Shown: in pieces, positions 8,886-27,639 of the stretch
How the letters are laid out: each line of letters opens with the position of its first letter
How positions within the stretch are numbered: the stretch's first letter is position 1
Origin: Patellaria atrata CBS 101060
Lineage: Eukaryota
Reading direction: 5' to 3'
Length of the DNA: 64,000 bases
NCBI GenBank assembly: GCA_010093705.1
Contig: MU006089.1
Location: forward strand, 1,909,561 to 1,973,560
Made by a program: the position numbers and the translations under genes
The notes under the pieces: model-generated
The model's input: the letters and a program-made list of their open reading frames with translations, nothing else
What the model was told of the DNA's origin: nothing
Databases searched by the model: none

Positions 8886-9167
8886 TTATTCAACCTCTTC
8901 GAAACTCCGCTTCCTGGTCGATCGCACCTCCCCTTTATTGACATCATGATGATGATCATCATCGTCTTCATCATCGTCTTCATCATCGTCTTCATCATCG
9001 TCTTCATCATCGTCTTCATCATCGTCTTCATCATCATCTTTATCATCTTCATCATCTTCATTTTCATCATTGTCGTCAATGACGATAGGAAACTCATCCG
9101 GCTCTCCAACCACCGTCTCATTATCATCGCTAACGCTGATGGGACGTTCTTTCGCGCCTTCCACCAC
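8886..9167 (-). CDS. Possible 3' part of a small acidic low-complexity protein (start unresolved)
   Basis: Protein-like ERPISVSDD...PIVIDD-(D/E)n-RKRSFEEVE*. The frame is open upstream to a TAA near 9375 with no ATG, so the gene model is uncertain. Confidence 0.35.
   Translation of the reverse strand: MVEGAKERPISVSDDNETVVGEPDEFPIVIDDNDENEDDEDDKDDDEDDDEDDDEDDDEDDDEDDDEDDDDHHHDVNKGEVRSTRKRSFEEVE
8957..9070. repeat. 12-bp tandem repeat (CATCATCGTCTT) x6 plus degenerate copies
   Basis: Perfect units start at 8957, 8969, 8981, 8993, 9005 and 9017; reads as (EDDD)n on the minus strand. Confidence 0.95.
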
Positions 9168-10638: not shown

Positions 10639-12144
10639 ATGTCTCGAGCTCTTGATCGCAGTCTTGATGAAATTGCGTCTACGAACGTAAGTAGAGCTGG
10701 CCGGCAATTGCACTTGCTATCCATCAGTACCAAATAGATATCTAATGGAGCTTCTTGATGTAGGCTCGCGGTTATCGTGGAGGCCGAGATCGACGTCAAA
10801 ACAACTGGCCGCGCGACGGCGTTAGAAAGGTGAATCTCGAAATTGTTAATGTTACTAGATTTTGTCTAACCTCAGTCACAGGTGTCTACTCCTCCTCATT
10901 ATCCTCCTCATCCCGGTTATATCCCTCCGACGCCTCAACGATAATCCTGCCTATGCTGCTGTGTGGCTTCAATCCACCGCTTCTCACCACCGTAGTGGCG
11001 CCGGAGGTCGATACGACGCGTTCATGTGATTAGTATATTTGCGATGTCGCTAACTTGGTTCCCTTCCTCATGATAATAGTCTAGCCAGAGAGATGAACCG
11101 AAGAACCTCGACCAGTACGTGACGCGCTGATATTGGGGTGATTCAGCAGCTAATTTTAACAGAGATTGGGTTCACGACCGTTTTGACGACGACGATTGTA
11201 TGCACGCAAAACAGTTGAATTGACTGGATTTAACAAATTGACAGCTCGACGACCCACGCGCGGACCCCACTCCCAAAGAGATAGGATAGAACGATACGCT
11301 CCAGAAAGTGACCAGTATGTAGCAGCATGAGTTCTTCCAAGTCGTCAACTTTCTAACGATGTGATAGAGCTTCGGGAGTAAAACTACGAGTCGAAAACTT
11401 ACACTATGAACTATCAGAGGATGACTTGAAGGTATAAGAAGCATTCCTGTATTCAATGAGCATACGCTTATGGAGTCAATATAGGAGCTTTTCGAACGCA
11501 TTGGTCGCGTGCAATCAGTTCAGTTGCTCTACGATCGTCATGACCGTAGCAAAGGTGTCGGCTTTGTCACTTATTATCGCGTATCTGATGCGCGTGCTGC
11601 TATCGATGAGTTCAATGGCGCAAATGCCAAAGGCCAACCTATCCGGCTATCTCTAGTTCCTCAACCAGCAGCCAGGCAACTTGCACGCAATCCTTTTGAC
11701 TATGTCGATGTTCCCGCCCGTAGTCTTTTCGATCGGATTGAGAATACCGGAACGCGCAGGCGTGGCAGGAGCTCTAGTCCTGACACATTCGTCAGACATA
11801 GCGATGTCAGCAAGCCTCCTCCGAGTAATATTGATCGTTACATCCCTGGCCAGCGTAGGAGATCTCCCCCAAGGCGTGGTAGCGGACGTGAAAGTGGACG
11901 AAGGCCTGGAGCTCGTAGAGAGCAGAGTGGTCGACGTGAGGATACTGGTAGACCCATAGTACAAGGAAGACCCAGGAAGACTCAACAAGAGTTGGATGCT
12001 GAGATGGAAGACTATTGGGGGAAAGGCACCAACGCTGATGAGTCCGCGAATGGTCACAACGGGAATTCTTTCATCCAGACAGCGGCAGCTGCTCCAGCGA
12101 ACACTAGCGCTCCAGTTGACGATGACATTGATATGATTGAGTAG
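10639..12144 (+). CDS. Yra1/ALYREF(THOC4)-like RRM mRNA-export adaptor; exons 10639-10686, 10764-10829, 11080-11114, 11163-11197, 11245-11314, 11368-11431, 11485-12144
   Basis: N-terminal LDRSLDEI motif, WVHDRF motif, RRM (KLRVENLHYELSEDDLKELF...DRSKGVGFVTY...ANAKGQPIRL) and C-terminal RPRKTQQELDAEMEDYW motif. All six introns are GT...AG and phase-consistent. Confidence 0.85.
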
Positions 12145-12834: not shown

Positions 12835-14713
12835 CTACGCCTCCTCAAACTGAATATCATCAATCCTGGAGAATCCAGCGCTGTCGGAAGCATTTTCGAG
12901 CATCCAGGAATTGATCAGTCTATGAAGGTGGTCCTTTTTTACCTGCCCCATGTCCTTCACTTTGACATTATGCTGGATAGGGTAATTGATCCCGAGATTA
13001 AGACGGGATGTTGGGAGTAGAGTGCATCCGCTGTCCTTTATTTCGATTTGTATAGGTTCTTTTCTCAATCCATTCTCGCCGGGAAGTGGTTGTGGCGGTT
13101 CACTGCTCGAGTAGACGATTGCATGCTGACTTGCCGAAGCAGGACATTTGAGCGTCGCCCGCTGTCCATACGTTGAGATCGGGCTATCTCATACTTTAGT
13201 AACGGTATCCAGTATCTCTAAAGGTGTCACAGACCATGCGCAGCAATGACCTCTTCCTTTCTTCTGCTGCACTACCACAAACCGACGGATCTGCGTGTAG
13301 ACCTTTCCATTAAATATTGTAGTGGTTATGTTCGACCGAGTTGAGGCTGGGTCTGCTGATGTCTCTCCGGCCGGTTCACTAAAAAGAACTGAGAAAACCT
13401 GGGGAAGCATTAGTACGATTACTTAATCTTTCCCCGTCGTCGCATCTCTCGCCTACTGTACGATCGATCTTAACCTTGTCTCTGACCTCTTTGTATAGGA
13501 AGCCGAAACGGACGAATAATACGCAATTATACGTAGGAGTTAACCGTGCATGCAACGTAAGTTCGGTTGAGACCGCGGCATTGACAGCCCGTCCGTTCNN
13601 NNNNNNNNNNNNNNNNNNNNNNNNNNNNNNNNNNNNNNNNNNNNNNNNNNNNNNNNNNNNNNNNNNNNNNNNNNNNNNNNNNNNNNNNNNNNNNNNNNTT
13701 ATTTGAAAAGCGTACAAAGATCCAAGAATGCGAATCACAATGAGGAAATGGTGATAAAACTGAAAGTGAAACGTACCCGCCCAGGAAAGAAGAACTCAGC
13801 GGGCCTAACTTTATAACCTGTGTGAGATTTAAATTAGCGCCCGTAAGTTCAACACTGGTGCAACTTACTCTCATCAAGTTCTCTAGTATCTCTGGTCGGT
13901 CTGATCGAATCCATGGTTTTGGATTGGTTCGGTCCGCTTCCGTACTGCGTAGCTCCATAACCCCCTAGTCAACGTCAGCACCTGGTTTGCCTTGGTTCCC
14001 TGCCATACCTGTTGCTGGACCTGGTTGCCAGGAACTTGATGATGAGACAACTACGCTACTCTCACTATGTTGGCCTATTGATCTGATCAGAGCGGTCACT
14101 CTTCGTTGGTATCGGTTGAAATACTTAATGGGGTAGGCGAATACAAATTATATATTCCATAAGGCTCACGGGGATGAGTAGGTTCGTAACTCGGCTGAGA
14201 GGGGACCGTTTGGTAAGGGTTCTGACCGTAACCCCCACCGGAGTAAGGTGCGTATTGTACCGGGCTCTTCTGAGAAACCGTTGTGTATGCCGTGGGGGCA
14301 TTTTGGTTAACCGGATTTCCCCATGGCTGGGTACCATACCCATAGTCTGTACCTGGCGATGAAGTATTTTGTGCTTCGTACAAGGTTCAGTATAATACAC
14401 TTGGAAGTATTGCAGGTTGGTTTGACCTACAGTATGGTGTCCCCACTGTCCGTGGTATCTCTGGTGACTGGCTTTGCTCATGAGTCTGATAGTGTTGTGT
14501 TTGACTCGACTGTCCCAGACTACCAGATTGTTCGGCTGGCTCGGCGACCCATACAGAGACCCACTGGCTCGTAGCTGTGTATAGTAAGCAATTCCATTAT
14601 CATAATCTACGCTGTGGGGAGGTTCCACGATTACCATGATCATATATTCTACGGAAATATCTCTTGTGTTCCTCACTCCACGTCAATTCAGTCTGTTGGG
14701 GCGACATCATCAT
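12835..14713 (-). CDS. DUF6590-type domain protein, copy A (multi-exon; one ~378-nt intron 13776-13399 spans an N gap)
   Basis: Hand splicing gives MMMSPQQTELTWSEEHKRYFRR...Q/Y/P-rich linker...RELDESYKVRPAEFFFPGR/VFSVLFSEP...IRRFVVVQQ...CCACPISTYG...HAIVYS...SRLNLGINYPIQHNVKVKDMGQV. Confidence 0.75.
13599..13698. other. Assembly gap (100 N)
   Basis: Run of n. Confidence 1.
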
Positions 14714-17700
14714 CCAATTCGGTCATGGCGTTTTACTCGACATGAAGGTAAGAGAGCGCCTATATAACTTTCCATGGCTACGATCCCGTAGTCCGGTTCA
14801 TTCGAGAGCCGCAACTTTCCAGAAACATTAGCTGAACTGGGTCGATGAAGAGGGTAAATCGATTGAGCTTAGTCTGGTGGTCTAGTGCATAGGAATTCTT
14901 TGTCCCAATCGCTATATGGCTTTACGTATCAATCTCGACGGCTTGGCCTGCAGTAACCTACTGAAGCAATCCTGCATGAATAGTACGTTCCAATTTCCAT
15001 CAGTTCTGTATACGCCCCCTTTATCAGATGACCATCACTTCCGTAAGAAATCCCCTTATCACATAGTCGGGTTGGCAGCGTCCGGAGGTACTGGCATAAA
15101 AGTTAAGTATAACTATTTCATCTCGGATTGTCCACAGTTCGACTTCCCTCTTCTCTTGATAATACTCGTACAGGACCGCTATTTTACATTTTTTTTTCCA
15201 TTTAAAACTCATCTTTACAATGATACTATTGCAAATTTGACGGTTAGTGTCACCATCGTCACTAGACATAAGGCTTATCTAGGGCCTATCAATCCCTTGT
15301 TGGTCTCCTAATCATAAACAGTAGCCTGACCTATGTAGCAACCCTTAGTGTGCACCCCAAATTTCATCCTAACTCCAATGACATGACATCGCGTCGAGGT
15401 TTGAGCCTCATCAATGACCAAAAAGAATGAGCTCTTAGGGCAATTTAAATTCAATTCTTATGCAGGTGCGGGAGAAATCCTACAGGTCTTCAGACTACTG
15501 CAATAGATTCCCAGCCTGCCAGTCATAGAATAACACGGAAGTGTGCATAGTATTTCTCAGAGGGTGGAGGTGTTTCACTGCATGAGCAAGTCTCACGTCT
15601 CAGGGGCTCAAGTGGAATATTCAGTCAGAGACGATTCATCAATGGACGACACTGCATGACCAGGAACGTTTACCTCGTCTTGTCTTTGCCTCTATGCCTT
15701 CTTGTATCTTTCATCAGGTTTTGAGGCACCAGGTGACTCTTCTACCCTGCACGAGGTTGCACAACCTATTTAGTTCTCTTCTTTCCGTTAACTCGCGGCT
15801 GGGGAGAGAGGGTTGACACGTGTTGGAACTTCCACTTGCAGTGAAGTGAAAGGATACTCCCGCTCAAAAACTCGGGTCTTGTCGGACTCGACATGCTGTG
15901 CCACCCGGGCTAACGAATCAGATTTCATGAATCAAAGTGTTCATAGTACTTCCCATGCTCCCCTCCATCTCATCGAATTTCCGACCTCACTGTAAAAGTG
16001 TAGTGACTCAGGGTTGTAAAGGAGTCTACCGTGGGAATGGGATGTATTTCGGCGACGAAAGCACTTTAAGGTAACTAATGACCAGAAATCTTGCATATTC
16101 TTTTAAATTCTCGGATGCAAAGCCGCCAGTGAAATATCCATAGCGGAAACCGATCCAATGCTTCCATATCCTCGCTGCCTGTAAATCATATTTTTCCTGG
16201 TAAGTTCCTCTCGAAATAACTTGTTTCACGCATATCTCTCATTCTCCAATATGAAAGCTCCTAAGTTTTGCCTTCAGAATAACGGAAACTCTGATTATCA
16301 CCCTTACTTAGATGGGTTTCACGTCTTATGATCCGCTAGGTCTCCGTAAATACAGACCTATAATCAGCTCAGAAGATATGTTCCCCAAGCTATAATTAAA
16401 CCGGCTGAAATATCAACTTTCTTTCAATTCATACCTTTCAGAGTCGATGTTCTTTCGCTATGGTTTTGTCCATTTTCATTGGTCAGCTTCGTTACACCAC
16501 GATATTTATTCTCTTTGTCTATTGGCTAATCCACTTACGCACATTATAGTAAGAAATCTCTCACAACATCATTATTTGCTTTTGTATATAATGCTCACAT
16601 GGTGGAGAAAAAGTGTTCTGTTACGTAGAGGTATCCATCTCTTTTATTGTCTTTGATTGTGCTGTACCGCACGTCCGACTCAGAGTGGCCCTTTACATTC
16701 CCTTTCTAGATCTCTTTTAGAGATGACATCGCTTCCACACGACCGTATGAGGGTTCAAAACTTGAGTTGTGTTCCGAACTATATGTTCTGTTTGACGTTG
16801 ACATAGAGTTTATAAGTTATGGGCTAGAAGTACCCTTGTCCTACGCTAGTTCTAAGGTACATGTTAGTGTACCAGAATATTTCGGTCTCAACTTTATTTC
16901 GACTCTCCCCTTAATTACACGACGTCCTTAAGATGTATTAGTCTATGTATAGTTCATATACAAAGCTGCAATCAGACTTTTGGGAGCGTAAATATCTCAA
17001 CAGTATACTTGTGCTAACGAAAACGACGCGTACACCGAAACCCTCTAAAGTACAGAAACAAAAGCTCATTGTGGGATCGTGACTTCTACCCAGGTTTTTC
17101 GATTGCCTGCGTTCCGTATAAAACCACATCTATGACTATTCCAACTAATCTCACATCTTTGGTCTACTTATTAAGCAAATTCCGGTATGACGTCTTCTTG
17201 AAATATGAAACGCCGCAACGAACTAACAGTCGTTGTTCATTGGCATCAATCGTTTGCCGCAAACCGTTGAATGGGTCAAGCTCTTCAGGTAAATAGATAC
17301 GAATAACTCTTAAGCTCAAAAATTAACGTTAGCAACTCTACCCGTAGTCCTCTTACATCCGCATGGTTTCCCATCGAACTAGTTGAAAAATACCCAATGT
17401 CTGCTGCTAAGCAGATGTGGTTCGGAGGGATGTGGCCTATTCAAACACTTTATTGCAAAAAGGAGGCTTTGAAGACCTTTAAGCCGTTAATCAGATCAAG
17501 AAAACTCTAACAATATTAACGCACTAATGGGATAATGCCTGAAATCTTAAGCAACGGTTCAGCCCATGGCTTACAAGAGATTAGTTTTGTTTAAGCTGGA
17601 TACGAACCGCAACAACGGGCGGAGCTAAGCCGCACTTGTGAGCGTATGAAGTCTTAACTACTATATACGACGCACTCAGGTGAGATATTGGTTTCTAGAA

Positions 17701-18971
17701 TCCCCAAGCTCGAAAGACTTAGATCTATCTACCGAGCTAGAAGTCTCTGAAGGCATCGAAGACTCAGTCCCGTATCTGGATTTCTCGTTACTATCGATCT
17801 TTTGTCTCATGCGGTTTATATAGAGGATATGGAAGTTTTCCTTTCTTTAGCTAAAAAAGTATATTAATGGTCAAACTGGAAAAAATTCACCCCGTCCAGG
17901 TTCCTAAAACATTATTCCAGGTACTCCTTGCTCCATGAGCAACCAATACTATCGGCATTCTTTGTAGAAAGGGGCGGACCAACCTTCATGTATTTCAATG
18001 TATCTCTGCTCTAACGTTCTATATCACCGATCCTCGAAATCCCGTCAGGCTGACGTATGTTTACAGAACTACAACGCCAGGTTAATAATGAAGCATTACC
18101 ATATCTTACGTCGTTCATACAGCTTACATAGTAAACCTGTAATATTCTTGACCATAACTAGGTGCGCCAAGACTAATCAGATAGTTCTAACGTCTACCCG
18201 GTTAAACTATCCACCATGGAGGTTTCACAACACGGGGCCTTATGACAACCTCGAACTGGACTTATCTAGCCACGCTTCAGTCTAATTGCCTCGAGCCAGC
18301 GCATACTGTTGACGGCGGTGACGCGGCCCAACCTATCACCACTGGATTGCACCCCCATATGCGCATAACTTCCGCATAAGAACCCTGTATTATTCAAACA
18401 CGACAGGTGTCAGCTAAATGTTGCTTCCCCAGCCGTCAATCAGATGGAATGAAAAGAGCCTCATCGATATTGATTGTAGTGATTAAGTCTTTTTTTTTTT
18501 AATCCATTGTATTGCATTATCTACAATACTGCGCATGTAGCCTCTTGGGCTATGGCGCTACTCTTCTCTCTATATAAATCCCTATTCTAGGGCAATAATA
18601 TGTCTAGTGAGAGTGTCTGAGGATTGAAGCTCCCCAGTTGTTCAAACTTTGCAGTCTAATCCAAGCATTAGAAAAACTGGACCAACTCCACTACATCCTT
18701 TGCTCTTCAATTCCCTGCATTATATATCAATCTAGTTTTTCCCGTATTGTAACAGGCTAGAGCCTAGTGGTATGGGATGCCCTGCATCCGAAGATCAGCC
18801 AGTAATATTTCCCTCAAACCTACCCTCAGACTTTTCTCTTCTTCTTCATCTTGATTGTAGATAGCATCTGGACTAGATAGTTGGAATATAATTACTAGAG
18901 GCCGCTCACAGTCAGCTCCATCTTCACTATCATCAACCTCAACACTATCATATCCTAATGATATTATTCTA

Positions 18972-20103
18972 ATGATGACGATACCAACGTTATAATCCCC
19001 ACCTCCACCTCCAGCGCCAGCAGCAGCAGCACCGCCGCCGCCACCGCCACACCCTTCTTATCCCTTTCCGTATCAGACTATCGTCCCACCGTTAGGACCA
19101 GGATTTAGTCTTCAGAAAGAGCCTGTTCCTGCCCCCAGTGTGGTTACTTCCGAACTGATGGCCGACTATCTATCCTCTGAATCTAGAGAGGGCCGACTGG
19201 AGGATGAAATGATTACTCTGAGATCTCAAAAAATCAAGATACTCGAAGAGAAAGGGGATATTCGCACATGGGTCTCCAACACAAACGGACGAGGAATATA
19301 CAGACAAAACTGGAGAATTGCATGCCGTGAGGCAAAGGTTGGAAAGCTTAGCCGAAGAAATGTGTAAAATAAGTGGAAACAAACCCATTCCTACTATAAG
19401 CGGCGAAAGACGAGGTAGGTCAACTGGCTCTCTGGCACTTTCTTCTACCGAGTCCCCAAGAATGCAAACTGCCGTCACTGAAAGCGGTGTCACGGGCTAG
19501 ACCCAATAGGTATAAGTGCCTTGGATGATCCAGCGGCTTAGCCATGCTATACTTTAATAGAACAGCTCACGCTGTTCTGGCACTTCTTTTACTTTCTTTC
19601 CTTAAGTTTAAGCTTCATGGATGATCCAGTAGCTTAGTCATGTTGTACTTTAATAGAACAGCTCACGCTGTTCTGACACTCGCTTTTGCTCTCTTTCCTC
19701 AAGTTTAAGCTAATGTCAAGGCTCAACCTCAGATGGAAGCTGAAATTGAGCCTTGACAAGCGGAGCCAACGTATCAGATGATCGTTTTGTTAAGATCAGA
19801 TCTCGAATAAGCGAATGGATATTAGACCGCCTACTTAATTCCCCTTTGGAAAGGGCAATACATAAGGCAGAACTTAGTGATCTAATGCTCGATGATCTGG
19901 CATGGTTGTATTTGGTGAAGAGATATTGGAACGATTCCGACGCACGGGATCCGGATCTGAAATACTACGGAGGCTCGGCGCTAGATTCCGCTTCCGAATC
20001 TCAAGAACACGCTATAAAGTCCGAGACCAAGAAGGTGAAGGCACTAGAGCCCTATCGAAATCATTTGAGGCTGAAAATCCAACGTGTACAGTCATTTCCC
20101 TAG
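18972..20103 (+). pseudogene. Disrupted paralog of the 20803-22427 coiled-coil gene
   Basis: TAA at 18993 before a Pro-rich stretch, apparent frameshift near 19252-19258, and many in-frame stops 19498-19749. Retains EEYTDKTGELHAVRQRLESL and RSRISEWILDRLLNSPLE...W..LVKRYW motifs. Confidence 0.6.
19522..19711. repeat. Direct tandem duplication, period 96 bp
   Basis: TGGATGATCCAG...TACTTTAATAGAACAGCTCACGCTGTTCTG...AAGTTTAAGCT at 19522 and 19618; differences are mostly C/T and G/A transitions. Confidence 0.92.
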
Positions 20104-20802
20104 ATTCATGTATTGCGTCAGATCCTGAATTAGGACGAGTGTACCCTTTTCTGAATTGCTAACTTACTTTTACTTTGATATAATTAAAAGCCTATTAATG
20201 TATTTATTACTGAGTCATTTTGTCTGAATATGCATAGATGTCACGCGCTCTGTGATGCTACATACTCTACTATAGCTACCCTTCCTCTCTAGTCAGATAT
20301 TACCTTGGCATTCAGTCTCATAGTCGATGAGCTTATGGGGTACCTTTGTCCCCTCTCAATAAAGCATTGTATACAGAAAGCTGATTCTCTACAGCACTTG
20401 GAAGCTCAATCCTCGAAATGATATGTATAACCGAACAGTTCAGAGAGGATTTATTGAACAAACGCTAGTTAGCACACTGATGATGCGAATCATTACTGTT
20501 ATCAATGGAATGGACATATTGTACCATTAACGCCGCATATTCTCAAACAATCGCTCTAGAAACACACTTCTCTTGTAAAAATTCTGCAGCATCTCGGAAC
20601 AATGAGGATATGCTCCTAATGAGGGTCACTTTAGGTGATTATATAGAGGTGATAGTGTCTATCCGGAAAGCCTCTCCGAGGATTTTGACACTTTGGAGTT
20701 GATTTCTGTTGTCGGCGTAGAATATGAAGAGTTTGCAACAACCAAGAGGCAAAGTGTAGATATCATCTTCTTGTGTCAAAGAGGCGGAGTTTGCCCTTGG
20801 CT

Positions 20803-22427
20803 CTAGCCCCGTGGGTGTGCTTGCCGGATTGCCGTGCTATAAAGGAATGGTTCAGAATATCTTCTTCTAGGTTTATCTCCAGCCCACCTTTGGGGAGGAT
20901 GACATGATCGCGACGAAAGGCTAGAGTCTGCGTTCACTGGCATAACGGAGAGGCCGCTTGGTGGAATATGTATCTCCTCACCCCGCTCCCAAAAATTAGC
21001 TGAAGCTTCTTCCGTTGGCTGTATGTGCAGTAAGATATCTTCGTTCGCTTGGAAGATATCCGTAAGCCAATCCTGAATACGATCTGTGATGTCGTTGCTA
21101 TGAGTCGCGCGATGTCCGACTATAGTCTTACTTCGCGGAAATCGGTGAAAGTTATGCGACGAAGAGCGGACGTTATCGCTAGTAGAACTACCATGCAACC
21201 CAGGGCCCTGTGTGTTCTTTGGTATTCCTTCTGGAGGATCATCGCCACCTATTGACCCGTCGGGATAAAGACTATTGTCTAAACACTTTTGTTTCAGTTG
21301 AGATGCTTTCTCTACCGCTTCAGTAAGCTCCTTGACCAACTTTTCGCGGTTCATATTGTAAGTATTTAGGATCACCTGATCATCGGTCTTTACCTTTTTG
21401 CCCGGCCGTATTGTTCTTGCTATTCGGGCCATTTTGTGTTGGAAGTCAACCTCGAGTGCACGTAATCTTTCTCTGGAAACCTGAACATCACCAACACTAT
21501 CATAGTATTCTTCAAGCAGCGGGTCATCTTCATCAGAACTCTCTGTACTTATAGAAACGCTCGCTTGTTCGTTCATCGATGCCTGGGTGCTACTATATTC
21601 TGTTCCCCCGCTAGGAAGAATATGCTGCAAGTCATGATTGAGACCTTCTTCTCGCTCTTGGACTTTCATTTCCAAGTCTGTCAAACGTTTGTCTCGTTCG
21701 ATCAACAACTCCTCAAAGCCCTTTAGCTCGTTAACAGAATATAAAAGCTTCTCGTGTAATTGCTTAAACTTAGCGAATGTCTCCCCTGTAAAAGCGTTTT
21801 GAGCAATTTGCTCACCGAACTGTTCTACAAGTTCGTTTTGGTCAACGAGCGCATGACGGCGAAGTTCCATATTTCGTCTACGGAGATTGATAACTTGGAT
21901 TCTATGTGTACCGACAGAGTATCGAAGCTTCATAGTTCGCTTGAGCCTTTGCACGAGTTCTTTGCTGATATGAAACTCATCGTCTGTTTGTTCGCTAAGG
22001 GATGTCGAATCGTTGTTTCCCGTTGCGCGTTGAATAGAGACTGATTTCATTTCTTTCACCGAGCTGTCGCTTTGAAATGATATCTTTCTCGATCTGGGCA
22101 CATCCTGAGGTGCTAAATTAATGGGCATTTCAGGTTTATTTTTGACCTCGGAACTATGATTCGTGCTAGTTTCCCGTGATACGGAAACTGGACGGAAACG
22201 ACCTGATCCAGTTAGAAACTTAGAAGGTCTTCACACGCTCATGTTCTCTGTCCTACTGATATCTGCAGGTTCATCGTCCGGTATAGCTGGTATATCTGGT
22301 TTAGAGATTACAGTTGAACGGACATTTCTATAGCATAGGTAAGCGAATGGACCCTGAACTAATAGAGCAAATTATATCCTTACGTGGACCCGAACGCCTC
22401 GGTGTATACCGCAGACTTTTCAGCCAT
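20803..22427 (-). CDS. Hypothetical coiled-coil protein (main exon contains ORF 22128-20803; upstream exons from ATG 22427 tentative)
   Basis: 441-aa ORF with heptad-like E/K/L/Q segments and LEEYYDSVGDVQVSRERL and DRIQDWLTDIF motifs. Candidate upstream introns GTAAGG...TAG and GTGTGA...CTAAC...CAG keep the frame. Confidence 0.7.
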
Positions 22428-23269
22428 ACTGGCCGCAATTTGGAGAAAAGGCAAGCTGTTTACACCTTCAAGTTTGTGTTCTAAAATCGTTGTGGGAAGT
22501 TATTTGAGGTCTAGAGGAACATGTTGTTGGATGTTCCTCTTGTTCGCTTGGGGGCGGAACGCACCGTAGCCTTCATACCAGCTGCACGCCTCACGATTCT
22601 AGTCTGAGTTCTGGCTGTATCTAACTAACGTGGTTGATAGTTGGTTCAAAATAGAAGGCGACATCTCCTATTCTCCCATGATCTTTAAGCTCGTGTTAAT
22701 GTTTCAAAATCGTCAGCTACTACTGTCTCGCCTCATAATTGGAAACATTTACACCTAGTATCTCAGCACCCTCTACTTACGTATATCCAAAGCCTGCAGA
22801 CTCAGTCAGTAAGGTAGTACTGGAACTGATTATGGAGGAACCCAGCAAGCCAGCTGAAATACTCGGTATGTAGCTTCAGAACCCCTCAAATGTATTATGC
22901 AAGCCACTTCGGATTCGTCTTGGTCTGCTCAAAAGCTTGCTGTGAAGCTTTGCTCGACGAAGCTGATTCGCAGTGCATAATGCAGTGTGGGAGCTGTATA
23001 ATGTCGAGCTAGAGCTTATCAGATATAGAAAATACTTTACGCATATTGCCAATAATGTTCTGGCATCTCAGAGCCGCAATAGCCCCTCCTAATACAAGGA
23101 GGAGCGAGGAGTCAAAGGCGCAAATCAGCAACATTTGGACATGCATGCTTTGATGGCGATACAATATCGCGCTGCACCAGCACTCTTCTAAGAGTGTGTT
23201 TCTCAAACCAAATAGCACAAGATCTGCTAATCAGTATCAACCAGGAATGTGTACATTGAGCCCGACGCG

Positions 23270-24916
23270 ATGAGCTCGCAACAGCAACAGAACCCGTGGG
23301 AGTGGGATTCCTATACGAACGAGTGGAGGCTTCGCGAGCCGCAAGAGCCCCAGCAGCAGAATCTCACCTGGCAGTTTGATCCCATTAGACGACGATATTT
23401 TTACTGGCTCGCACATGAAAGATGTTGGGTATACGACAACGGAGAAAGGAGATACCAAGATGAAAGTACGCAAACACTAAGTGGAAATTCGCACGTTCCA
23501 AGGTTAGTGTCGTGATCGTAGCTTGATAGCTTGCGGATTAGGTGATAACTCCAGTCTGTGCAGTCCGACCTTGCCACGTTTTATACCGTCAGACGATCAG
23601 AGACCAAGTACTGGTAGGAGTACAACGTTCCCTTCCGCTAACGTCGAGTACACGACTAGACTCCTAAATGGGCTGGAATTTCATGCTGGAGGTATGTTCG
23701 TGACCGCAGCACACCTAACTCAAGAAAGACATCATGACATTGTCCCCGAAAGGTAACTGACATGAACACGGGTACAGGCCAGCATGGGTTTCGAGAACAG
23801 AACAACCACCCGGTACCGCATTCCACCTTGCAAAATGGAGGGCCTGCCCCTAATTTGCTACCCTCAAACATGCACTCGTTGCAGAGAGGACAACCTAGCA
23901 CGGGTGCTCCTTACACACAATCCCAAGTTGCACCTCCGGAAGTTAGCGTGCAACGACAAGCCCAGATTGGTTATGAGAGATATGAGCAGGATGGTGTCGG
24001 CGGCGTTTATCCAATTCCACGTAACTATCACCAGTTACATGATCCGAAGCAGGTCACGGACCCGGTACTTCTTCAACAGGGGGGGAAAGCATATAAGATA
24101 ATCAAGGAGACAGAAGGAGAACAGGAGACTCTTGATCCTAGTATGATTCATGGAAAATGAAGTCCAGAGCGGGAGCCTAACTGACATTAGGATATCGAAA
24201 GCAAAAGCCAGGCAATGAATTTTTTAGGGTTGGAAAGGTGGATTCTATATCCGATCCTTACTGCGACTATACTAACAGCACACTAGGTGTTTAAGATTCT
24301 GTGGCCCGAACTACCCGGTGATGTTGACGACCGCATTACTATAGCCACAGAGCCCCGATTTGGCGAAAAGTTTATCACTAAGATACGGTGGTTCGTGGTA
24401 GTCAGGGAGGGCAACACGTATTGCTCCTGTCTCCCGATCCAGACCTATTCCGGAAAGGGAGTTGCTAAGAAAAGTGTGATCAAGGAGCATCATGCTATCA
24501 TATACACGGGTAAAAGTTTGCCCAACGATATTCCAAAGCCAAAAGAACTACCAGGGCGAGAGGAGGGCCCAATGAGAGAACCTATAAGAGTTAAGCAGAA
24601 TGTGAAGTATGAAAAAATGGATCCAATGTCCCGAGTAAACTTCGCAAAGATTTATACGGTAGAGCATAATGTTAAGGTGTACGATTTTGGTAATGTACAT
24701 CCGAGATTCATTAGTCTCTTAAGGCATCAGTTTGTAGCTGTCTGGTCCCTCTCTATGATGGAGGAGCTAAAGCCAAAAGAAACAGAAGAGGGTACCGGCG
24801 AGGATGATCAAGAGGAAGCTGAAGATGAACAGGACGAGGAAGAAGCTGATCCTGAAAGCGTTGGGGATGACGATGGACATGGGAGCCATAGACACGTTAC
24901 GAACGCCGATGAATGA
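23270..24916 (+). CDS. DUF6590-type domain protein, copy B; introns ~23503-23563, 23692-23777, 24141-24190, 24238-24286
   Basis: W/Y-rich N-terminus (WQFDPIRRRYFYW), Q/P linker, then ETLDPRY...FFRVGKVFKILWPE...IRWFVVVREG...CSCLPIQTYSGKG...HAIIYTG...SRVNFAKIYTVEHNVKVYDFGNV; acidic tail. Confidence 0.85.
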
Positions 24917-25715
24917 TTGTTTCCGACAAGTTTTAATCGGCTGATCTCGGAGGTAATCATTTTACGGTGCAGATACGGTCGGGATTCGAGCCTCAGAATG
25001 TGCTAAGAGGATGCCTTATGTTGAGACGGGAGGCAGGTTCTCCCCTCGTCGTCCGACGCGATTTCATTTTTCCCTCTTTGGTTAACTTCCGGGCCAAGGA
25101 CGCATTTAATGCTTTTATTGCCTCATGTTATACGCACTTTGTCTTGTCTTTGATGGGGACTATACGAGATCAGCACATATATATGCCGCTGGTCTAAAAC
25201 CGGAGCATTGCTCCAAACCGTCAATCCACTCCTTAATAGTTCGGAATTTGCTTCCTGCAACTTTAGGCTTTAGCGTTTCTTTTCTTACATGGTTATCATC
25301 GACACTGCTGTTTACTGTTCTTCTATTATATCACGATTAATGGACCTCCTGTGCAGGAATGGATGTGATCGTCGCTGCTTTTGCACGGCGTGTATATAGA
25401 AGTAGTTAGAGTAGATTCGGTCAAATTACTAGATGGATATCCTTTCTAGTATTCGAACATCGTGTGAGACAAATCCTTGCGCCTCCGAAGAAAACATGTC
25501 CTTAAGAAGTTCTCTAGGTCGAAATGAGGTGATGTGGTTTGTAGAGACCTTGTAGGAATTGAAGTCGATGTTACAAAGTAGGTCCGACCCTTCACAAGAT
25601 GGCCCGGGGATAGAGAATACGCACGGACCCAGCTTGCATGACCCGCTAGTTCTGAATTTTCTGCAGAATGCTTGATGTCCTACCGTCCAACATCACGCTC
25701 CAGCAATCATAAAAG

Positions 25716-27639
25716 ATGAAGAGAAAATTGAACGAGCATGACGTTCCAGACGCAACTGTTCAGGCAACCCCCGCCCGAACTCCCTCCAACTCTACGTTCG
25801 CTGCATTGCAGCTAGATCCCAGGCTTCTCCAAGGCATCGAGAAGCAAAAGTTCTCCAGTTTGACCCCAATCCAAGCCAATGCTATACCTTTAATTCTAGA
25901 GGGAAACGATGTTCTAGGACGGTCACAAACCGGCAGCGGGTGCGGAGTAATCCCTCGTGAATAGACCTTCCGTTCGAATTACTTACACCCCGAATAGGAA
26001 AACCGCAGCATACCTACTACCGATCCTACAGTTGATCCTGAAGCATAAGAAAGATCATAACCCCACCAAATCCACCTCGGCGCTCATACTCGTTCCGACC
26101 CGAGAACTGGCCAGTCAAGTTACCGGCGTAGCGCGAAGTCTGGCAGTATTCTGTGCGAATGACATTCGGATTGAGAATATCACACGTGAAGATGATAAAG
26201 TACAGAGAGCAAGGTTGGCAGAGTCGCCTGATATTGTTATTGCGACACCAGGAAGAACATGTGTTCATTTAAACAATTCCGCATTATCACTGAAAAATCT
26301 TACCCACTTAGTCATTGACGAAGCGGATCTAGTCCTATCTTACGGCTACGATGATGATCTGGAGAATATCTCAAAATCGGTACCCAGGGGCGTACAAACA
26401 ATACTAATGAGCGCAACGCTAAAAACAGACCTCGACGTGTTGAAAAATCTATTTTGCCGTGATCCAGTCATGTTAGACATAGACGAGGGAAAAGAGTCGA
26501 ATAAGGTTAGCCAGTACGTTGTGAAATGTGGGGAAGACGAGAAGTTTCTCCTCATCTACGCGATGTTCAAATTGAAATTGATCAAAGATAAAACCATCGT
26601 GTTCGTCGGAGATATAGACCGCTGCTACAGACTCAAACTCTTTCTGGAGCAATTCGGTGTCAAGAGCTGCGTTCTGAACTCCGAACTCCCGGTCAACTCC
26701 AGGCTTCACGTGGTAGAAGAGTTCAATAAGAATGTGTATGACATCATCATCGCAACAGACGAGCATGAAGTGCTCGGAGACGAAGAAAATATCACGGAAA
26801 CCGCACCTGAAGCCCTTGGAAAGGAAAATGGTCATGTCAACACGAATGGACATCCAGACGACCCAGCAGATGCAGCAGACGCAAAAAAAAAACCCAAACC
26901 AGTCAAAAAGAAACGCCGCACGTCCTCCCGCGCCAAAGACTTTGGTGTCGCCCGCGGCATCGACTTCAAAAACGTCGCCTGCGTCCTAAACTTCGACCTC
27001 CCCACCTCCTCGAAATCCTACACCCACCGCATCGGCCGGACCGCGCGCGCCGGTAAAACCGGCATGGCGCTCTCCTTCATCATCCCGACGGAGCTTTACC
27101 GCAAGCACAAGCCAACCTCCTTCCCGACGTGCGAGTACGACGAAGCGGTTCTCGCGAAGATCACCAAGGCGCAGGAGAAGCGCGGACAGAAGGTGGAAGA
27201 GTACGCCTTTGACATGAAGCGCCTGGACGGGTTCCGGTACCGGCTCGGTGACGCGCTGAAAGCCGTCACGCGGATCGCGATCCGCGAGGCGCGGACCAGG
27301 GAGCTGAGACAAGAGCTGCTCAAGAGCGAGAAGCTGAAACGCCACTTCGAGGAGAACCCGGAGGATATGCGGCACCTACGGCACGATGGCGAGTTGAGGG
27401 CTGCGAAGCTGCGTCCGCATTTGAGACATGTGCCGGATTATCTGTTGCCGGGGGGTGTGCAGGCTGTGGAGAGGGATGTTGGGTTCGTGGGGCTGAGAAA
27501 GGAGGAGACGAATAGGGAGAAGAAGCGAAGGGTTTTGGCGAGGAGGAAGGGGAAGACTAGGGTGCAGAAGACGAGGAAGGCGGATCCGTTGAAGACGTTT
27601 AATGCCAGGGGGAGGGGGAGGAAGGGGGCTGCGCTGTAG
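25716..27639 (+). CDS. DBP9: ATP-dependent DEAD-box RNA helicase DBP9/DDX56; intron 25940-25997
   Basis: MKRKL start; spliced QTGSGKT motif [33 protein letters not shown]9-typical [10 protein letters not shown] and HFEENPED...LRHD. Confidence 0.95.

Follow-up and report, generated by a model that had tools for sequence, protein, structure and literature searches.

A co-inherited pair of fungal genes: DUF6590 proteins with a predicted MazF-type fold and a fast-evolving helical partner

The DNA analysed here – 64,000 nucleotides of contig MU006089.1 of Patellaria atrata CBS 101060, referred to throughout as the window – holds two genes of the DUF6590 family (D) and two genes of a second, unnamed family that we call the partner (P). 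An earlier note, made from the letters of the window, had read their order as D-A(-)/P-A(+)/P-B(-)/D-B(+), and this order is borne out: DUF6590-A lies at 12838..14713 on the minus strand, partner-A at 18996..20103 on the plus strand, partner-B at 20806..22427 on the minus strand and DUF6590-B at 23270..24916 on the plus strand, with Pfam family PF20233 (DUF6590) recognised in both outer genes. The central finding is that DUF6590 and its partner very probably form a real, co-inherited module, maintained in many fungi.

Both DUF6590 copies exceed the PF20233 gathering score of 27 bits. The domain of copy A is matched in two pieces, 12835-13188(-) (E 5e-27, 95.2 bits) and 13189-13422(-) (E 2e-11, 44.6 bits), and that of copy B in one, 24287-24916(+) (E 5e-44, 150.3 bits); the two are 32% identical over 106 amino acids (E 4e-15). 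The copies had been said to have two intron positions in common, and the exon junctions, as read from the sequence, fall alike in both genes: the first after LDE/LDP, where the next codon is split past its first base, and the second after FFFPGR/FFRVGK. Copy A has one extra intron within the domain, at a point where most relatives are also split (positions 57/58 of the hidden Markov model, HMM).

The layout of the two proteins is similar. DUF6590-A starts at 14713 with a WW-like motif (14683-14627, an N-terminus located by tblastx to the related loci L008 and L005), continues as a linker rich in Y, Q, P and G and ends in the intron-split C-terminal DUF6590 domain. One of its introns contains a run of 100 N (13602..13701); in the DNA contigs of two sequencing runs, both of the same source, the sequence breaks off at 13598 and picks up again at 13699, which marks the N stretch as a gap in the assembly that conceals no coding sequence. 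DUF6590-B has a WW-like N-terminus, a linker and an acidic tail, and its last exon (24287-24916) encodes a domain of predicted MazF fold. Full-length relatives likewise open with a WW-like motif, WxWDxxRxxYYY..VYxxG, followed by a long stretch of low complexity, and many end in an acidic tail. Pfam does not recognise the WW-like motif of these proteins (in the window, 14713-14627(-) and 23270-23500(+)). Proline-rich stretches occur in several partners, and a second contact made through the WW-like motif is conceivable.

Pair B is compact and apparently intact. Its start codons, at 22427 and 23270, stand 842 bp apart, and the region between them (22428..23269) is presumably a bidirectional promoter. 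The pairs had both been described as head-to-head; the description holds tightly for pair B, but the start-to-start gap of pair A is ~4.3 kb (14713 to 18996). Partner-B is an open frame of 475 codons (20803-22230(-)), for which a recorded gene model of 504 amino acids puts the start at 22427; the frame is 100% identical to this hypothetical protein of P. atrata CBS 101060. AlphaFold2 predicts helices at residues 108-173, 178-233, 266-302, 312-347 and 410-430 and leaves the rest disordered (mean predicted local distance difference test, pLDDT, 67.6), which corresponds to a layout of disordered N-terminus, two long helical hairpins, a helix bearing DRIxxWL and a C-terminal RRYSEP motif.

Relatives of partner-B were recovered by a full phmmer/HMMER search of 1.84 billion representative proteins, which gave 116 proteins at E<=1e-3, 10 of them at E<=1e-10; a search of this kind was needed, a word-based protein search having returned no match besides partner-B itself. 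When aligned, the family shows a basic stretch at the N-terminus and a long coiled region, and it has four motifs in common: PLLxxYYDxxGDxxxxRERL, LxxxCxxxGL, DRIxxWL and, at the C-terminus, RRxSxP. The motifs that the earlier note had picked out in the two partners prove to be the first and third of these, conserved features of a genuine family. Its named members, from Cryomyces, Lepidopterella and Trichoglossum, are all recorded as 'hypothetical protein', and no Pfam family consistently matched the partner in scans of the window pieces and of 37 and 94 family members. Foldseek returns generic coiled-coil or hairpin matches for partner-B (best E 0.02), and its ESM Atlas neighbours are unnamed ascomycete clusters together with one automatic 'bZIP' label (score 0.90). 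A role as transcription factor was considered and rejected: the label stands alone, and the 94 members scanned gave no bZIP match in Pfam.

Partner-A is of a different character. It survives as three frames, 18996-19367, 19222-19500 (shifted by one frame) and 19750-20103. The last of these (19750-20100(+)) matches an HMM of four syntenic P(+) paralogues at E 1.5e-11 over the DRIxxWL helix and the SPLE...DDxxWW stretch that follows it, and matches the left-hand P(+) gene of L005 by tblastn (E 1.4e-8, 45% over 67 amino acids). The frame at 19222-19497 gives a weak but collinear match to the YYD/RERL-type motif (HMM E 0.07; BLASTP to partner-B 8e-4). Against the broad partner-family HMMs partner-A went undetected (E>1). 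When the last frame is set against the broad family alignment, hhalign pairs RSRISEWILDRL with TDRIQDWLTDIF (P 0.021), the same pairing that had been proposed from the sequence. The two partners are thus linked by profile, by way of the P(+) subfamily, as the earlier note had supposed; its treatment of partner-A as a gene of the family stands for the last frame, which joins the family through the P(+) HMM, but not for a gene that is frameshifted, cut and missed by the broad models.

The signs of decay are several. The overlapping frames 18996-19367 and 19222-19500 are out of register with each other and, from a reading of the sequence, the GT..AG pair that would join them is absent; the gene is frameshifted, has lost most of its coiled region and is interrupted by high-copy repeats. 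Partner-A is probably a pseudogene or heavily truncated, and on account of this decay pair A does not work as a unit here. In the DNA contigs of the two runs, word depth rises to ~80x baseline over ~18520-18858 and 19507-19806. The first of these repeats (18520..18858; word depth ~24,900 against a baseline of ~317) lies 5' of the remnant and is bounded by contig breaks at 18518 and 18859; the second (19507..19806; depth ~25,500, breaks at 19517 and 19806/19817) lies between the two conserved motifs of partner-A and consists, by direct-repeat search, of two tandem units of 96 nt that are 85% alike. Tandem Repeats Finder reported no repeats over 12-26 kb. Between the two elements, over 18859-19517, the contigs agree with the assembly. 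Neither element has a further copy within the window, and the two may be repeats resembling miniature inverted-repeat transposable elements. The ~3.8 kb between DUF6590-A and the partner-A remnant (14714..18519) is single-copy DNA at baseline word depth that holds no recognisable gene: it has no open reading frame (ORF) over 141 amino acids, a Pfam scan of 20 ORFs (17 of them in 14125-19057) gave nothing above cut-off, tblastx of 14700-18990 found no match in 78 related loci, and the signature of repeat-induced point mutation was not found in it, the indices being unremarkable. The matching D-to-P spacer of related loci is only ~0.8 kb long.

The pairing of the two families was examined in metagenome contigs of the JGI, which were scanned with a DUF6590 alignment and the pattern EHNVKVxx[FI]G. 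The best 80 of 126 confirmed DUF6590 matches gave 78 loci (L numbers) totalling 507 kb; their six-frame ORFs were searched with a partner HMM derived from the set of 116, and those DUF6590 genes were counted that had at least 2.7 kb of DNA upstream of the domain. A head-to-head partner gene stands beside 31 of these 40 DUF6590 genes, and beside 25 of 33 and 21 of 28 after clustering at 97% and 90% DNA identity, so that the enrichment proposed by the earlier note as a test of its idea is found in other fungi, non-redundant genes included. The gap between the DUF6590 and partner HMM matches is 1.2-4.1 kb, and 1.2-2.3 kb in most pairs. Every one of the 33 partner genes in the loci adjoins a DUF6590 gene (31 head-to-head, two at a locus edge in L074/L075, 13547-14221), a count that, with loci selected by DUF6590, says nothing about partner genes situated away from DUF6590. 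The mirror-image order D(-)/P(+)/P(-)/D(+) recurs in L005, L006, L008 and L064; the first three carry a third D(-)/P(+) pair (12.9-17.2 kb) that is not present in the window, and L074/L075 have three tandem P(-)/D(+) units in one orientation.

Phylogeny tells the same story. In the DUF6590 tree copy A falls together with the D(-) genes on the left of L005, L006 and L008 (SH-aLRT branch support 99), and copy B belongs to a clade of ten (SH-aLRT 99) made up of the window, the middle D(+) genes of the same three loci, and L001, L007, L009, L013, L016 and L034. The same ten loci form a single clade in the partner tree (SH-aLRT 99), in which the left-hand and right-hand P(+) genes fall into separate, well-supported clades; smaller groups match as well, namely L046 with the left-hand unit of L064, the two units of L074, and L027/L030/L048/L055/L066. 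Comparison of the phylogenies, which the earlier note had suggested, thus finds partner clades that match those of DUF6590, the A and right-hand clades among them and paralogues within one locus included. Congruence between linked genes follows from linkage itself; what the trees show is that the pair was duplicated and afterwards kept as a unit over long times, and that the A and B pairs are paralogues older than the split of several taxa. Enriched pairing and congruent trees together sustain the idea of a linked two-gene unit inherited as a module.

The pairs are also old in position and constrained in sequence. The gene immediately downstream of D(+) is of the DEAD-box type in L011, L012 and L017 and likewise in the window (a DEAD-box helicase at 25713-27639), and pair B therefore occupies an old syntenic site. 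In ten comparisons of close relatives, covering both genes, the ratio of nonsynonymous to synonymous substitution (dN/dS) is 0.11-0.61: between L005 and L008 it is 0.61, 0.19 and 0.53 for the left, middle and right partners and 0.40-0.41 for the domain; between L006 and L009, 0.21 for the partner and 0.11 for the domain; and between L027 and L030, 0.13 for each. These ratios indicate purifying selection on both genes, with the A-type partner (0.61) standing above the B-type (0.19) in the L005/L008 comparison. The partner nonetheless diverges much faster than the gene with which it is paired, partner-B being 22% identical to its nearest relative against 53% for the domain of DUF6590-B.

A clue to what the module might do comes from the predicted structure of the DUF6590 domain. 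The AlphaFold2 model of the DUF6590-B domain, made with 53 sequences, has a pLDDT of 91.3 and a predicted template modelling (TM) score of 0.83. Searched against the PDB with Foldseek, all rows listed but one are MazF or related toxins (probability 0.97-0.98, TM score by target 0.47-0.61), the best E being 0.056 and no row reaching E<=0.001. VIA-align, run against 48,161 representative chains, places MazF, Kid or CcdB in each of its first 11 rows (Z 6.6-8.9, root-mean-square deviation 2.3-3.5 A, 87-101 residues aligned in chains of 94-118), although best Z values of 7-8 are common for models without a clear match. The next rows are the type III toxins CptN, ToxN and AbiQ (Z 3.7-5.7); unrelated folds score 4.3 or less, and binding barrels of the Tudor, PWWP, BAH and LSm kinds come lower in the list (Z 3.4-4.3). 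What makes the case for the fold is that the top rows all belong to one family, that they are aligned over almost their full length and that the scores fall off beneath them; Z alone does not make it. An independent model in the ESM Atlas, of the relative P0231, has PemK/MazF clusters as its nearest neighbours outside DUF6590; NCBIfam holds no model that matches the DUF6590 domain or P0231. On these model comparisons we consider it likely that the domain adopts a MazF/CcdB-type fold, an SH3-like barrel with a C-terminal helix.

Three polar residues of the domain are invariant (H69, R116 and E126) and four nearly so (T53, S115, K121 and N128). The A-type clade, to which copy A of the window belongs, reads YPIQHNVKV where nearly all other sequences read YTVEHNVKV, and thus has Gln and Pro in place of the conserved Glu and Thr (compared over the window, 12880-13182(-), L005, 153-449, L008, 96-389, and L006, 1336-1710). 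Judged by these substitutions the A-type clade may be a catalytically dead paralogue. The acidic tail of DUF6590-B lies at 24760-24916(+), and in some relatives such a tail is followed by a terminal basic run. In bacteria the acidic tail of MazE sits in the RNA groove of the toxin; by analogy, self-inhibition in cis by the DUF6590 tail is conceivable.

Fusions and a prediction of binding add to this picture. In P0263, a partial gene model from Scytalidium, DUF6590 (232-378) precedes NB-ARC (412-620) and TPR, and so stands at the effector position of fungal NOD-like receptors (NLRs). DUF6590 is also fused to a protein kinase in P0244, to SH3 in several proteins, with P0234 among these fusion relatives, and to CDC37_M, as CDC37_M-DUF6590, in P0266. 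Prediction of a complex between the domain of DUF6590-B and residues 100-504 of partner-B, in three runs and with three controls, gave a score of 0.50 (runs 0.52, 0.48 and 0.50) against 0.00 for every control, with a partner pLDDT of at least 51 and agreement of contacts between runs of at least 18%; the result is graded 'weak support'. In calibration, 51 of 78 solved complexes attained the pass mark, as did 2 of 108 mismatched pairs; passes at scores of 0.60 or below came from only 5 of those 78 complexes and from every one of the 4 mismatches, among 180, that passed at all. A score of 0.50 thus falls in a range in which a pass is likelier to be false than true, except where binding was probable beforehand. 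Because the conserved pairing supplies a strong prior, we lean slightly towards the view that the DUF6590-B and partner-B proteins bind.

How, then, is the locus to be read? The interpretation we put forward, which we would rate at somewhat less than an even chance, is that a two-gene module conserved in filamentous ascomycetes, and present here in duplicate, consists of a MazF-fold effector and a helical partner. The DUF6590 gene encodes a WW-like motif, a long disordered linker rich in Y, Q, P and G, and a C-terminal domain of 150 residues with predicted MazF/Kid/CcdB fold; the partner, fast-evolving and built of two long helical hairpins with short conserved motifs, is transcribed divergently from a shared region of ~0.85 kb, and inheritance, duplication and loss act on the pair as a whole. 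The MazF-fold domain might bind or cut RNA, cutting being the simplest possibility, or otherwise arrest growth, while the partner may bind the effector and hold it inactive or direct it, in the manner of an antidote or a regulator. Release of the effector after stress or upon detection of non-self would then stop growth or kill the cell, a proposal that fits the presence of DUF6590 at the effector end of an NB-ARC-TPR receptor. Pair A combines a DUF6590 gene of the clade without the conserved Glu and Thr with a decayed partner, whose counterparts elsewhere are under relaxed constraint. Toxin-antidote logic allows such an order of loss: an antidote could become dispensable once its effector was harmless, which is a matter of consistency and not of proof.

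The narrower assignment of roles, effector plus antidote, is put forward tentatively, at a strength a little below that of the interpretation as a whole. The 'effector plus inhibitor' reading of the earlier note is made more plausible by the predicted fold, the NLR effector position and the weak binding prediction. More speculative, and in our estimation improbable as a whole, is the wider view that DUF6590 and its partner are a widespread, vertically inherited eukaryotic counterpart of MazF-type toxin-antitoxin (TA) modules: an endoribonuclease-like effector with a co-evolving helical antidote that, alone or wired to an NLR, would provide filamentous fungi with regulated growth arrest or cell death against viruses or non-self, with paralogous pairs insulated from one another by the divergence of their partners.

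A good deal weighs against a MazF-like effector and its antidote. The cautions attached above to the Z values, to the binding score and to the census count belong here, as does the fact that the NB-ARC fusion is known from one partial gene model. At the level of sequence, PF02452 (PemK_toxin) gave no match at E<=10 in 53 family members or at E<=1 in the window pieces; a PDB profile search with DUF6590 returned low-complexity matches and no toxin at E<=10; and hhalign gave P 0.051 against Escherichia coli MazF and P 0.073 against 80 MazF relatives, neither significant. The sole local hhalign match, of CSCLPIQTYS with CLCVPCTTQS of MazF (E 0.05), a stretch that we take to hold a catalytic Thr, is a lead only. 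With no significant sequence link to MazF, the equivalence of catalytic sites is therefore unproven. The partner bears no likeness to known antitoxins, its fold search yielding generic helical hairpins, and the two genes are arranged divergently and not as an operon. Nine of the 40 DUF6590 genes counted (7 of the 28 clusters) are without a partner – in L021, L029 (two), L042 (two), L053, L062, L063 and L071 – and in L029 and L042 the arrangement is tandem, DUF6590-DUF6590. A short-lived selfish element is hard to reconcile with the conserved synteny and the purifying selection; these two features, and the orthology of the pairs across distant taxa, fit an ordinary cellular complex equally well.

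Such a complex is the main rival. The DUF6590 barrel would bind RNA or peptides without toxicity, the helical partner would be a scaffold, and a bidirectional promoter would match the amounts of the two, just as it keeps amounts matched in histone gene pairs. We judge this unlikely, while giving it real weight. In its favour are the orthologous pairs that keep their place by the DEAD-box gene (window, L011, L012 and L017), A and B pairs that predate the split of several taxa, and dN/dS values of 0.11-0.61, with positive selection not seen at the level of the gene; the missing sequence link between DUF6590 and MazF and the Tudor, PWWP, BAH and LSm barrels in the fold list (Z 3.4-4.3) also speak for it, SH3, Tudor and Sm barrels being remoter neighbours of the domain in structure, and the SH3 fusions suggest protein-protein scaffolding. 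It accommodates less readily the 11 best structural matches, which are all toxins and stand well above the binding barrels, the place of DUF6590 at the effector position of one NLR, and the faster divergence of the partner (22% for P-B, 53% for D-B, to the nearest relative). The presence of one to three pairs per locus, together with one decayed partner, suggests birth-and-death evolution and not a set of housekeeping genes fixed in number, and – weakly – two word-based lists of DUF6590 proteins hold no named relative from a model fungus.

Fungal non-self systems often consist of two linked genes, and the earlier note had raised the idea of an allorecognition module; a locus of this kind, or a meiotic-drive or spore-killer element, would carry linked, co-adapted alleles whose mismatch kills. 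Allorecognition loci are defined by polymorphism within a species, in alleles or in presence and absence, and this is often trans-specific. Tight linkage, divergent transcription, a fast-evolving partner, the possibility of several diverged pairs at one locus and the single NLR fusion of DUF6590 are all in its favour. The claim nevertheless fares poorly: HET, HeLo and NLR-part Pfam domains were found neither in the four window genes nor in 37 partner-family proteins, and no other known incompatibility domain was found in the four genes; the pairs are orthologous and syntenic with the DEAD-box gene, synteny being held across taxa that are just 30-55% identical in the domain; and selection is purifying. 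We regard this explanation as quite improbable, meiotic drive being ranked low on account of the old orthology and synteny. Least probable of all, and very much so, is adjacency without functional meaning, an ancestral accident followed by a segmental duplication that copied both genes. Duplication of a segment does copy all it contains, and linkage alone yields congruent trees. Against this reading stand the divergent pairing retained in 21 of 28 non-redundant DUF6590 genes over deep clades, the position of all 33 partner genes next to a DUF6590 gene and the compact spacing of 1.2-2.3 kb in most pairs; the binding prediction, too, passed its controls, if weakly.

On the side away from the DEAD-box gene the four genes are flanked by one with RRM and FoP domains (11485-12144), of the Yra1/ALY-like kind that had been named as the neighbour from the sequence. 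Further out, at 8925-9089 of the window, a 12-nt periodic repeat has ten in-register copies, whose minus strand would encode a run rich in Asp and Glu.

TA modules built on the MazF/CcdB fold are characteristic of bacteria and archaea and of the plasmids that these carry. The name DUF6590 was not found in a search of 8.4 million open-access papers and bioRxiv preprints, and the same sources gave no relevant report on MazF, PemK or CcdB with fungi, whether of an endogenous fungal family with such a fold or of the gene pair; in the matching passages of one candidate paper the eukaryotic matches are Doc/Fic- and ParE-like, with no MazF among them. What is new here is the prediction of a MazF fold for DUF6590, an unnamed partner family, and a divergent, vertically inherited eukaryotic pair with an unrelated type of partner. 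If the interpretation were true, the pair would represent a new class of effector for fungal immunity and programmed cell death, a further instance of a domain from bacterial conflict systems acting in a eukaryote, and a natural collection of diverged cognate pairs that would lend itself to studying how effector-antidote specificity evolves. Even without toxicity, two families of unknown function – one in Pfam and one unnamed – gain a functional link, a fold and a testable hypothesis, and a prediction about gene neighbourhood made from one window holds across many fungi.

It remains to place the pair among known systems. The wtf and Spok drivers and the sec-9/plp-1 and het-c/pin-c pairs resemble the DUF6590 pair in their tight linkage, in gene products presumed to act on one another, in having several diverged copies per genome and in a fast-evolving component. 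Those elements are lineage-specific or highly polymorphic, whereas the DUF6590 pairs are ancient orthologues in conserved synteny, and selection on them is purifying; to our knowledge none of those systems has a MazF fold. Many N-terminal effector domains of fungal NLRs (NB-ARC or NACHT plus TPR, WD or ANK repeats) also occur as stand-alone proteins. The DUF6590 of P0263 sits at that N-terminal position, a single example from a partial model, while the genes of the window are without an NLR part. In the literature searched, DUF6590 is not on record as an NLR effector domain.

The closest parallel is with the bacterial type II TA systems mazEF, parD/kis-kid and ccdAB, whose toxins have the same fold as that predicted for DUF6590 and in which, likewise, a co-inherited and faster-evolving second gene adjoins the first; direct binding is, in the fungal pair, weakly predicted. 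The differences are substantial. The DUF6590 pair is eukaryotic, intron-bearing and vertically inherited at a syntenic chromosomal site; it is transcribed divergently from a presumed shared promoter region, in contrast to the bacterial operon; and its partner, of 440-750 amino acids and composed of helical hairpins, has no likeness to MazE, Kis or CcdA. The DUF6590 domain, moreover, is without significant sequence or profile similarity to PF02452 and makes up the C-terminal part of a protein of 400-700 amino acids that includes a WW-like motif and a disordered linker. To PF20233, recorded in Pfam as a fungal family of unknown function and matched by both copies in the window, the present analysis adds a predicted fold and a family of partners.

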